DNA of 757 nt. Source: a phage. The translations under genes and the position numbers were made by a program. Positions 1 to 757 of this stretch are shown piece after piece (the first letter of the stretch is position 1; every line of letters starts with the position of its first letter). Where the stretch lies: the sequence record DQ372055.1; one strand, 5' to 3'. The notes below the pieces were generated by a model. It was not told the origin of the DNA. It saw only the letters and a program-made list of their open reading frames with translations, and ran no database searches.

Positions 1-106
1 TGACGACGACATGGCTCGATTGGCGCGACAAGTTGCTGCGATTCTCACCAATAAAAAACGCCCGGCGGCAACCGAGCGTTCTGAACAAATCCAGATGGAG
101 TTCTGA
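1..106 (+). CDS. cII: cII transcriptional activator, C-terminal fragment (5' end outside window; codon phase starts at nt 2; stop TGA 104-106)
   Basis: Frame starting at nt 2 translates to [34 protein letters not shown], which matches the C-terminus of phage lambda CII as I recall it. Not in the ORF track because it is truncated by the window edge. Identity is recalled, not computed. Confidence 0.88.
52..78 (-). terminator. Rho-independent terminator of the oop-type antisense RNA (minus strand)
   Basis: Read on the minus strand: 5'-CGCUCGG-UUGCCG-CCGGGCG-UUUUUUAU. A 7-bp GC-rich stem (six Watson-Crick pairs plus one G-U) formed by nt 72-78 and 59-65, loop 66-71, then a U6 tract (plus-strand A6 at 53-58). 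On the plus strand the run of A precedes the hairpin, so it terminates only leftward transcription. Position within the cII 3' end matches the lambda oop terminator. Confidence 0.6.
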
Positions 107-129
107 GGTCATTACTGGATCAATCCACA
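52..129 (-). ncRNA. oop: oop-like antisense RNA (about 78 nt), antisense to the cII 3' end and the cII-O spacer
   Basis: Terminator at 52-78 on the minus strand, and a candidate promoter on the minus strand that places the transcription start near nt 129. Length and position relative to the cII stop match lambda oop. The 5' end is inferred, not observed. Confidence 0.5.
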
Positions 130-135
130 GGAGTA

Positions 136-164
136 ATTATGCCAAAACAACTCAGTCCTGACCA
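136..164 (-). promoter_or_regulatory. Candidate po-like sigma70 promoter for oop (minus strand)
   Basis: Minus strand reads TGGTCA (plus 159-164; 4/6 to TTGACA), a 17-nt spacer, then CATAAT (plus 136-141; 5/6 to TATAAT). Predicted start is about 7 nt downstream, near plus nt 129. The -10 overlaps the ATG of the small ORF on the opposite strand. Confidence 0.4.
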
Positions 165-285
165 GGACAAATTACACAAAAACATACTACGTGATCGGTT
201 CTTATCCAGCTTCAAACAGCCTGGTCGATTTCGGGCTGAGTTGGAGAAAGTGAAGCTAATACTGAAGAGGAAAGGTCATGAGTAA
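139..285 (+). CDS. Hypothetical small basic protein, 48 aa: [48 protein letters not shown]
   Basis: ATG at 139-141 is preceded by AGGAG (129-133) with a 5-nt spacer. This is the same initiation context that lambda uses for O, about 32 nt after the cII stop. Open for 48 codons to TAA 283-285; the other two + frames are closed across this stretch (stops at 134-136, 159-161, 251-253, 257-259). Composition is 8 K + 5 R against 3 D + 3 E. The stop overlaps the O start codon. No homologue recognised. Caveat: a 48-codon open frame arises by chance about 10% of the time. Confidence 0.45.
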
Positions 286-757
286 TCTTGCAACAGTTAC
301 ACCGATAAAACCTCATCTGGAGGTTGTGGAGCATCGCGTGGCAGAACTCGACGATGGCTACACCCGGACTGCAAATACACTGCTGGAAGCTGTCATGCTT
401 TCTGGGCTTACTCAACATCAGCTACTGATTGTTATGGCTGTGTGGCGCAAGACATACGGTTATAACAAAAAAATAGATTGGATCGGAAATGAACAGTTCG
501 CTGAACTCACTGGCATGGCGCCAACCAAATGTTCTACCGCCAAAAACGAGCTTATCAGAATGGGGGTTCTCACTCAGGTGGGGCGTCAGGTTGGTATGAA
601 TAAAAATATTTCCGAGTGGAAGACGAAGGTTAACGGATTCGGTAAAACATTTACCAGATCGGTAAAACTAACCTTCACCAAATCGGTAAAAACCAATTTA
701 CCGAATCAGTCAAACACAAAAGACAATATACAAAAGACAATAAATACAAATACCCCC
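278..757 (+). CDS. O: Replication initiation protein O (lambda O family), N-terminal iteron-binding domain; 3' end outside window
   Basis: ATG 278-280 is preceded by GAGG (267-270) with a 7-nt spacer. It is the first ATG after in-frame stops at 251-253 and 257-259, and the frame stays open to the window end (160 codons). Translation [65 protein letters not shown]...NELIRMGVL...GMNKNISEW...TKDNIQKT aligns with lambda O from residue 1 as recalled (MTNTAKI..., DLDDGYARLSNMLLEA, LRKTYGWNKP, NEAKLELVRM, GPNKNISEW, TKDTITKE). Iterons lie inside the gene, as in lambda. Confidence 0.88.
637..706. repeat. Origin iteron array: three dyad-symmetric O-binding sites built on TCGGTAAA / TTTACC half-sites
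   Basis: Forward half-site (A)TCGGTAAA at 639-646, 659-666 and 683-690. Inverted half-site TTTACC at 650-655 and 697-702, and a degenerate TTCACC at 674-679. The outermost 10-mers, ATTCGGTAAA (637-646) and TTTACCGAAT (697-706), are perfect reverse complements. Forward half-sites are spaced 20 and 24 bp apart. Position inside the O N-terminal-domain coding sequence mirrors lambda ori. A possible degenerate fourth site, GGTTAACGG, lies at 628-636. Confidence 0.7.
716..742 (+). repeat. Perfect 13-bp direct repeat ACAAAAGACAATA (716-728 and 730-742) in the A-rich tract right of the iterons
   Basis: Identical 13-mers one nucleotide apart (period 14). They sit in a strongly A-rich, strand-asymmetric tract (707-757) in the same place as the A/T-rich unwinding region next to the lambda iterons, which as I recall has the related motif ACACAAAAGACAC...ACAAAAGAAAAAAG. 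Confidence 0.6.

Follow-up and report, generated by a model that had tools for sequence, protein, structure and literature searches.

The stretch of DNA analysed here, which we call the window, comprises 757 nt of a phage sequence record (DQ372055.1) and, judged from its alignment, is a mosaic of phages lambda and P22 whose joint lies within the oop promoter pO. Positions 1–121 are identical to lambda (NC_001416), positions 114–757 are 100% identical to P22 (orf48, gene 18 and part of the origin), and the two parts overlap in ACTGGATC (114–121). Full departure from lambda occurs at lambda base 38694 (window 147); before this point the window differs from lambda at four positions, namely 122, 126, 135 and 142 (lambda coordinates 38669, 38673, 38682 and 38689). 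No copy of the exact 75-nt joint turned up in 185,579 species genomes, 2.9 million viral contigs or 241 million metagenome records, and BLAST searches of phage, plasmid and E. coli complete-genome sets likewise returned no identical joint, with best matches that were 94–95% identical. The plus strand carries the following features:

1–106, plus strand: 3′ end of cII (last 34 codons, TGA stop at 104–106), identical to lambda; Pfam Phage_CII, E = 2e-9.
129–133, plus strand: Shine–Dalgarno (SD) sequence AGGAG of orf48, also used by lambda O (sequence and alignment).
139–285, plus strand: orf48 (DUF2740), 48 codons, the first gene of the P22 replication module, 100% identical to P22; Pfam DUF2740, E = 2e-28.
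278–757, plus strand: 5′ part of gene 18, an O-like replication initiator overlapping the orf48 stop, with part of the annotated ori, 100% identical to P22; Pfam Phage_rep_O, E = 2.7e-38.

The spacer between cII and orf48 is 32 nt long. Lambda has no orf48, and its O gene begins where orf48 begins in the window. Gene 18 starts at an ATG (278) inside the end of orf48, the two genes sharing 8 nt (278–285), which suggests translational coupling, and the rep_origin feature of the P22 record maps to window 630–774. At 626–717, Rfam gave a weak match to the plant microRNA precursor MIR774 (E = 0.3); it coincides with the ATCGGTAAAA-type iterons that recur in the P22 origin within gene 18 and is regarded as an artefact of these repeats. 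In several recent phage records (loci L003 and L086–L089), the 48-aa DUF2740 protein encoded by orf48 is labelled 'tail protein'; given that orf48 belongs to a replication module and stands beside an O-like gene, this label looks like a propagated annotation error.

A second set of features lies on the minus strand or spans the joint itself:

52–128, minus strand: predicted oop antisense RNA, 77 nt, collinear with lambda oop and differing from it only at RNA nt 3 and 7.
52–82, minus strand: intrinsic terminator tO, a 12-pair hairpin (82–55) and a U-tract (plus-strand A-run 53–58), with the 3′ end near 52 (terminator scan and fold).
136–144, minus strand: extended −10 element of pO, made up of TG (144–143), one base and CATAAT (141–136); it overlaps the orf48 ATG at 139–141 (promoter scan).
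159–164, minus strand: −35 hexamer TGGTCA of pO, P22 type, with a 17-nt spacer (promoter scan); it lies within the annotated P22 oop promoter and is identical in BTP1.
114–141, no strand assigned: conserved 28-bp core ACTGGATCAATCCACAGGAGTAATTATG at the lambda/P22 joint, holding the oop +1, the SD sequence, the ATG and the pO −10 (alignment).
113–132, no strand assigned: LexA-like box TACTGGATCAATCCACAGGA (CTG-N10-CAG) spanning the oop +1; no other site in the region matches the LexA consensus as well.

The coordinates of the predicted RNA follow those of lambda oop, which we take to run from lambda base 38675 to 38599, equivalent to window 128 to 52. A preliminary description had proposed that an oop-type antisense unit is retained here, and this was borne out: pO, the 77-nt RNA body and tO are all present, and 75 of the 77 nt of the RNA are as in lambda. 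The predicted RNA is complementary to the last 52 nt and the stop codon of cII (55 nt) as well as to the cII–orf48 spacer. The published lambda oop is 77 nt long, and the same overlap between oop and cII is given by Hayes 2012 (PMC3349717).

Folding of the predicted RNA yielded two hairpins with a minimum free energy of −28.4 kcal/mol (z = −3.57), and the same two hairpins were obtained for lambda oop (−28.5 kcal/mol, z = −4.27). In the terminator stem, 8 of the 19 distinct natural variants of lambda-like type show two compensatory changes, one from CG to UA and one from GC to CG; these changes probably stem from a single lineage. Among these variants, RNAalifold retained only the terminator stem, while the 5′ hairpin of oop was not kept. 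A GC-rich hairpin followed by a U-tract was found in the window 60–80 nt downstream of +1. A permissive Rfam search returned no oop family and no family at its gathering threshold. The best overlapping matches, STnc310 with 17.7 bits against a threshold of 40 and AgvB with 17.3 bits against one of 56, each had E > 1 and were discarded as terminator-like chance matches. Furthermore, a natural viral contig of 41.6 kb (L134) is identical to window 1–134 and then continues into a lambda-type O gene; it encodes the identical RNA, and the same oop RNA thus exists in nature.

The plus strand reads ATTATG at 136–141 and TGACCA at 159–164, so that the hexamers CATAAT and TGGTCA named in the preliminary description are both found at these positions of the minus strand. 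Its placement of the promoter in the divergent segment holds for the −35 and the spacer, which lie in the P22 part, but not for the −10, which belongs to the 28-bp core common to lambda and P22. Its further observation that the −10 overlaps the start of the small ORF proved correct, as CATAAT (136–141) covers the ATG of orf48 (139–141). This overlap is not new but ancestral: in lambda, CATAAT of pO is the reverse complement of the ATG region of O, which uses the same AGGAG. Our promoter scan detected one site in the window, compared with 1.1 ± 1.3 in shuffled sequences, so the hexamer match alone is at chance level. What makes the pO site credible is homology, conservation and published annotation rather than its consensus score. 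In the P22 records BK000583 and AF527608, the minus strand at 32346–32374, corresponding to window 136–164, bears the annotation "oop promoter; similar to phage lambda". For lambda, swapping the ATTAT of the −10 was reported to inactivate pO and to abolish the oop-dependent phenotype (Hayes et al. 2012, PMC3349717).

The palindrome GTCCTG-AC-CAGGAC (window 155–168) overlaps the −35 hexamer of pO. The terminator scan also matched it as a possible second terminator on the minus strand (168–155), a candidate that we rejected, as the palindrome is short, covers the −35 and has a poor T-run. The palindrome is not conserved, one arm being altered in the E. coli orf48 class (GTCCTTACCAGGAC).

At the oop 5′ end and the pO −10, the core ACTGGATCaATCcACAGGAGTaATTATG matches window 114–141 exactly. 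A homology of 33 bp at the lambda/P22 joint was presented by Hayes 2012 (Fig. S1/S2; PMC3349717). The putative LexA-like box is retained in the window, where positions 113–132 score 14/20 against the LexA consensus, compared with 15/20 at the same place in lambda. A LexA box in the lambda-specific spacer (TGCTGTATTTGTCATAATGA) was also considered; at 11/20 it was passed over for the higher-scoring box in the core. Hayes 2018, citing Lewis et al. 1994, places a LexA site in oop-pO, and we infer that the CTG-N10-CAG box of the core is this published site. A LexA-like box spanning +1 may help to explain why the core is conserved.

Scanning viral contigs for the core ACTGGATCWATCMACAGGAGTMATTATG yielded at least 120 loci, of which 119 usable natural loci were analysed. 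TGn-CATAAT was present in all 119 loci listed, even though codon 2 of the overlapped gene is ACA, CCA or GCA. With the sole exception of L206, these loci carry a hairpin of −15.5 to −20 kcal/mol with a T-run that ends 62–63 or 75–79 nt from +1. In the window, the hairpin (82–55) and T-run are identical to lambda, which, together with their near-universal presence among these loci, agrees with the earlier suggestion that the terminator inside the cII 3′ end is conserved. The oop bodies and terminators to the left of the core fall into four classes among the 119 loci listed, namely the lambda, Stx/21, ST64T and P22 types. To the right of it, five classes can be told apart by gene and −35 hexamer:

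Lambda O: −35 TTGAGT.
orf48-P22: −35 TGGTCA.
orf48-E. coli: −35 TGGTAA.
HK97 gp53 type: −35 TGGTAT.
One other class: −35 TGGAAT.

These left and right classes occur in 14 combinations among the 119 loci listed. The combination seen in the window, a lambda-type oop body with an orf48-type module, is found in nature, for example in UPF_BP1, in Stx1 phages and in 8 of the 119 loci listed. The many combinations mark the core as the boundary at which immunity and replication modules are exchanged, and module exchange at the core had already been shown by Hayes et al. 2012 (Figures S1 and S2; PMC3349717). Free reshuffling affects the −35 hexamer and the body of oop, while the core, TGn-CATAAT and the placement of the terminator stay constant. 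That the −35 drifts while TGn-CATAAT is fixed suggests that the −35 contributes little. The 80 orf48 loci are near-identical, with the same promoter segment in 65 of 71, and the more distant classes may share ancestry, which makes them poorly suited to a synonymous-site test of the −35 inside orf48.

The oop terminator stems of the P22 and ST64T types differ at the same place (GCCTCAA...TTGAGGC versus GCCCCGAAGAA...TTCTTCGAGGC; locus L001 554–615 and 40+ loci of the P22/ST64T class), and the oop RNA is ∼62–63 nt long in both types. Here, within the coding end of c1, one stem has clearly been replaced by another.

From these data, we consider it very probable that 52–164 is the oop transcription unit (pO, oop RNA and tO) of a lambda/P22 mosaic phage. 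Sigma-70 RNA polymerase would start leftward at ∼128 from the extended −10 promoter TGgCATAAT in the core that all lambdoid phages share, with P22 contributing the −35 TGGTCA, which lies inside orf48. Transcription would end at the lambda hairpin and U-tract inside cII, yielding a 77-nt RNA that should pair perfectly with the cII 3′ end and the following spacer on the rightward pR message. For lambda, it is known that pairing of oop with cII makes RNase III cut the cII message and lowers CII (Krinke and Wulff 1987 and 1990), shifting the phage towards lytic growth. By analogy, initiation, RNA formation and the RNase III effect would be the same in this exact hybrid. What matters here is convergent transcription with pR, together with RNA pairing that stops one base short of the SD sequence; lambda is no different in either respect.

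The preliminary description had raised the possibility of a different outcome, in which the foreign −35 would lead to different oop output and a retuned control of cII, and leftward initiation would in addition disturb the start of orf48 translation. We judge this improbable, although several differences speak for it: the −35 and the spacer are not those of lambda (TGGTCA versus TTGAGT), the base just downstream of the −10 (window 135) also differs, and the two −35 regions are described as distinct by Hayes 2012 (PMC3349717). However, the window and lambda promoters each match the consensus at 9 of 12 positions, and both have a 17-nt spacer and an extended −10. Five natural −35 hexamers accompany one fixed TGn-CATAAT among the 119 loci listed, again suggesting that the −35 matters little, and the LexA-like box is kept. 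Moreover, the hybrid itself forms turbid plaques at 30 °C, and its own oop thus does not abolish CII function (PMC3349717). As for a collision of leftward transcription with translation initiation on the small ORF, we found no support for it: ribosomes load on mRNA and not on promoter DNA, so that no clash of promoter use with translation initiation is expected, and the overlap of −10 and start codon has the identical geometry in lambda.

A further reading concerns the DNA of the promoter itself. A CCAGG Dcm site (CCWGG) lies over the pO −35 on the plus strand (window 162–166). Among the loci listed, all four right-hand classes other than lambda O have CCAGG equally far from the ATG, as does an Erwinia phage, in differing codon contexts (GAC CAG GAC, TAC CAG GAC, TAC CAG GAA and TTC CAG GTT); lambda O does not have it. 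Its retention could reflect either shared protein ancestry (Y/F/D-Q) or a constraint at the DNA level. On the latter side, the core, a single block that holds +1, the LexA-like box, the SD sequence, the ATG and the extended −10 and serves as the site of module exchange, might be more than a promoter piece held in common and, together with the CCAGG at the −35, might place pO under the control of DNA methylation or an unknown protein instead of −35 recognition, which we hold to be a distinctly unlikely arrangement. The odds are longer still that TGGTCA and CATAAT match the consensus by chance, with processing of a longer leftward transcript, not a promoter at 136–164, giving rise to the short RNA of P22-type phages. 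In favour of this, the scan returns no more promoter sites than shuffled sequence does, and 10 nt separate the −10 from the 5′ end of the P22 RNA at window 125, a somewhat long distance for a start; but the site is homologous to the lambda pO that the ATTAT mutation of the −10 inactivates (PMC3349717), TG and CATAAT are invariant in the 119 loci listed despite the change of codon 2, and the scan finds no other leftward promoter-like site upstream within the window.

Taken as an oop unit, the locus is an ordinary one, since oop is a well-known gene of lambda-like phages and the annotation and publication of the hybrid promoter predate this analysis. Like the oop unit, both the P22-type promoter and the lambda/P22 hybrid promoter are already known, from the annotation of P22 and from Hayes et al. 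2012, and as a discovery the locus matters little. The overlap between promoter and start codon that had looked unusual is how lambdoid phages are normally laid out. Within this promoter the −35 is exchanged freely and the extended −10 core stays fixed, which argues against a large regulatory effect of the −35 swap.

Among the known systems most like the window is the oop unit of lambda. In both, oop lies between cII and the replication genes, with 75 of 77 RNA positions identical and the same terminator. The promoters have in common TG and CATAAT, a spacer length of 17 nt, a −10 that overlaps the start codon of the next rightward gene, and the CTG-N10-CAG box around +1. They differ in spacer sequence and −35 (TTGAGT in lambda, TGGTCA in the window), in RNA nt 3 and 7, in one base between −10 and +1, and in the gene whose start codon lies under the −10, which is O in lambda and orf48 in the window.

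P22 is identical from window 114 rightward and hence has the same promoter and the same first transcript bases. Its oop differs in that it runs into c1 and ends at another, closer hairpin, giving ∼62–63 nt versus 77 nt in the window; the P22 records also annotate the oop terminator in c1. In line with this, small-RNA-seq of P22 detected an oop RNA of 63 nt (PMC13397905). The 5′ end of the P22 RNA maps to window 125, 3 nt downstream of the lambda-homologous +1; the true +1 could lie at 125–128, or the P22 reads could have been trimmed. The Salmonella prophage BTP1 matches the window at every base from −35 to −10, whereas its oop body and terminator belong to the ST64T type, and the BTP1 transcriptome includes an ncRNA, OOP-BTP1, at the corresponding position (Owen et al. 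2020, PMC7067206).

A further close system is the laboratory hybrid phage lambda cI857(18,12)P22 (lambda hy106, DQ372055.1), sequenced by Hayes et al. 2012 (PMC3349717). They describe hy106 as carrying lambda cII, an essentially intact oop and a hybrid pO made of the lambda −10 and the P22 −35; hy106 departs fully from lambda at base 38694, and orf48-18-12 takes the position of O-P (PMC3349717). All of these features match the window. Each half of the window also agrees base for base with its laboratory reference phage and the joint did not turn up in the collections searched, so the source is most probably this laboratory hybrid or a phage of like construction. A natural prophage is a less likely source, although lambda-type oop bodies also meet orf48-type modules in nature and L134 matches window 1–134. 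The text of that paper gives one change within oop and one beside the −10 (38673 and 38689), whereas the window has two within oop (122 and 126), one between +1 and −10 (135) and one beside the −10 (142); the differences at 38669 and 38682 are absent from the paper's text, a discrepancy that counts in favour of the natural source. Finally, cII of hy106 responds to OOP made from a plasmid: the phage, turbid at 30 °C, forms clear plaques on OOP-overproducing cells (PMC3349717), and its cII is thus still a target of the antisense RNA.
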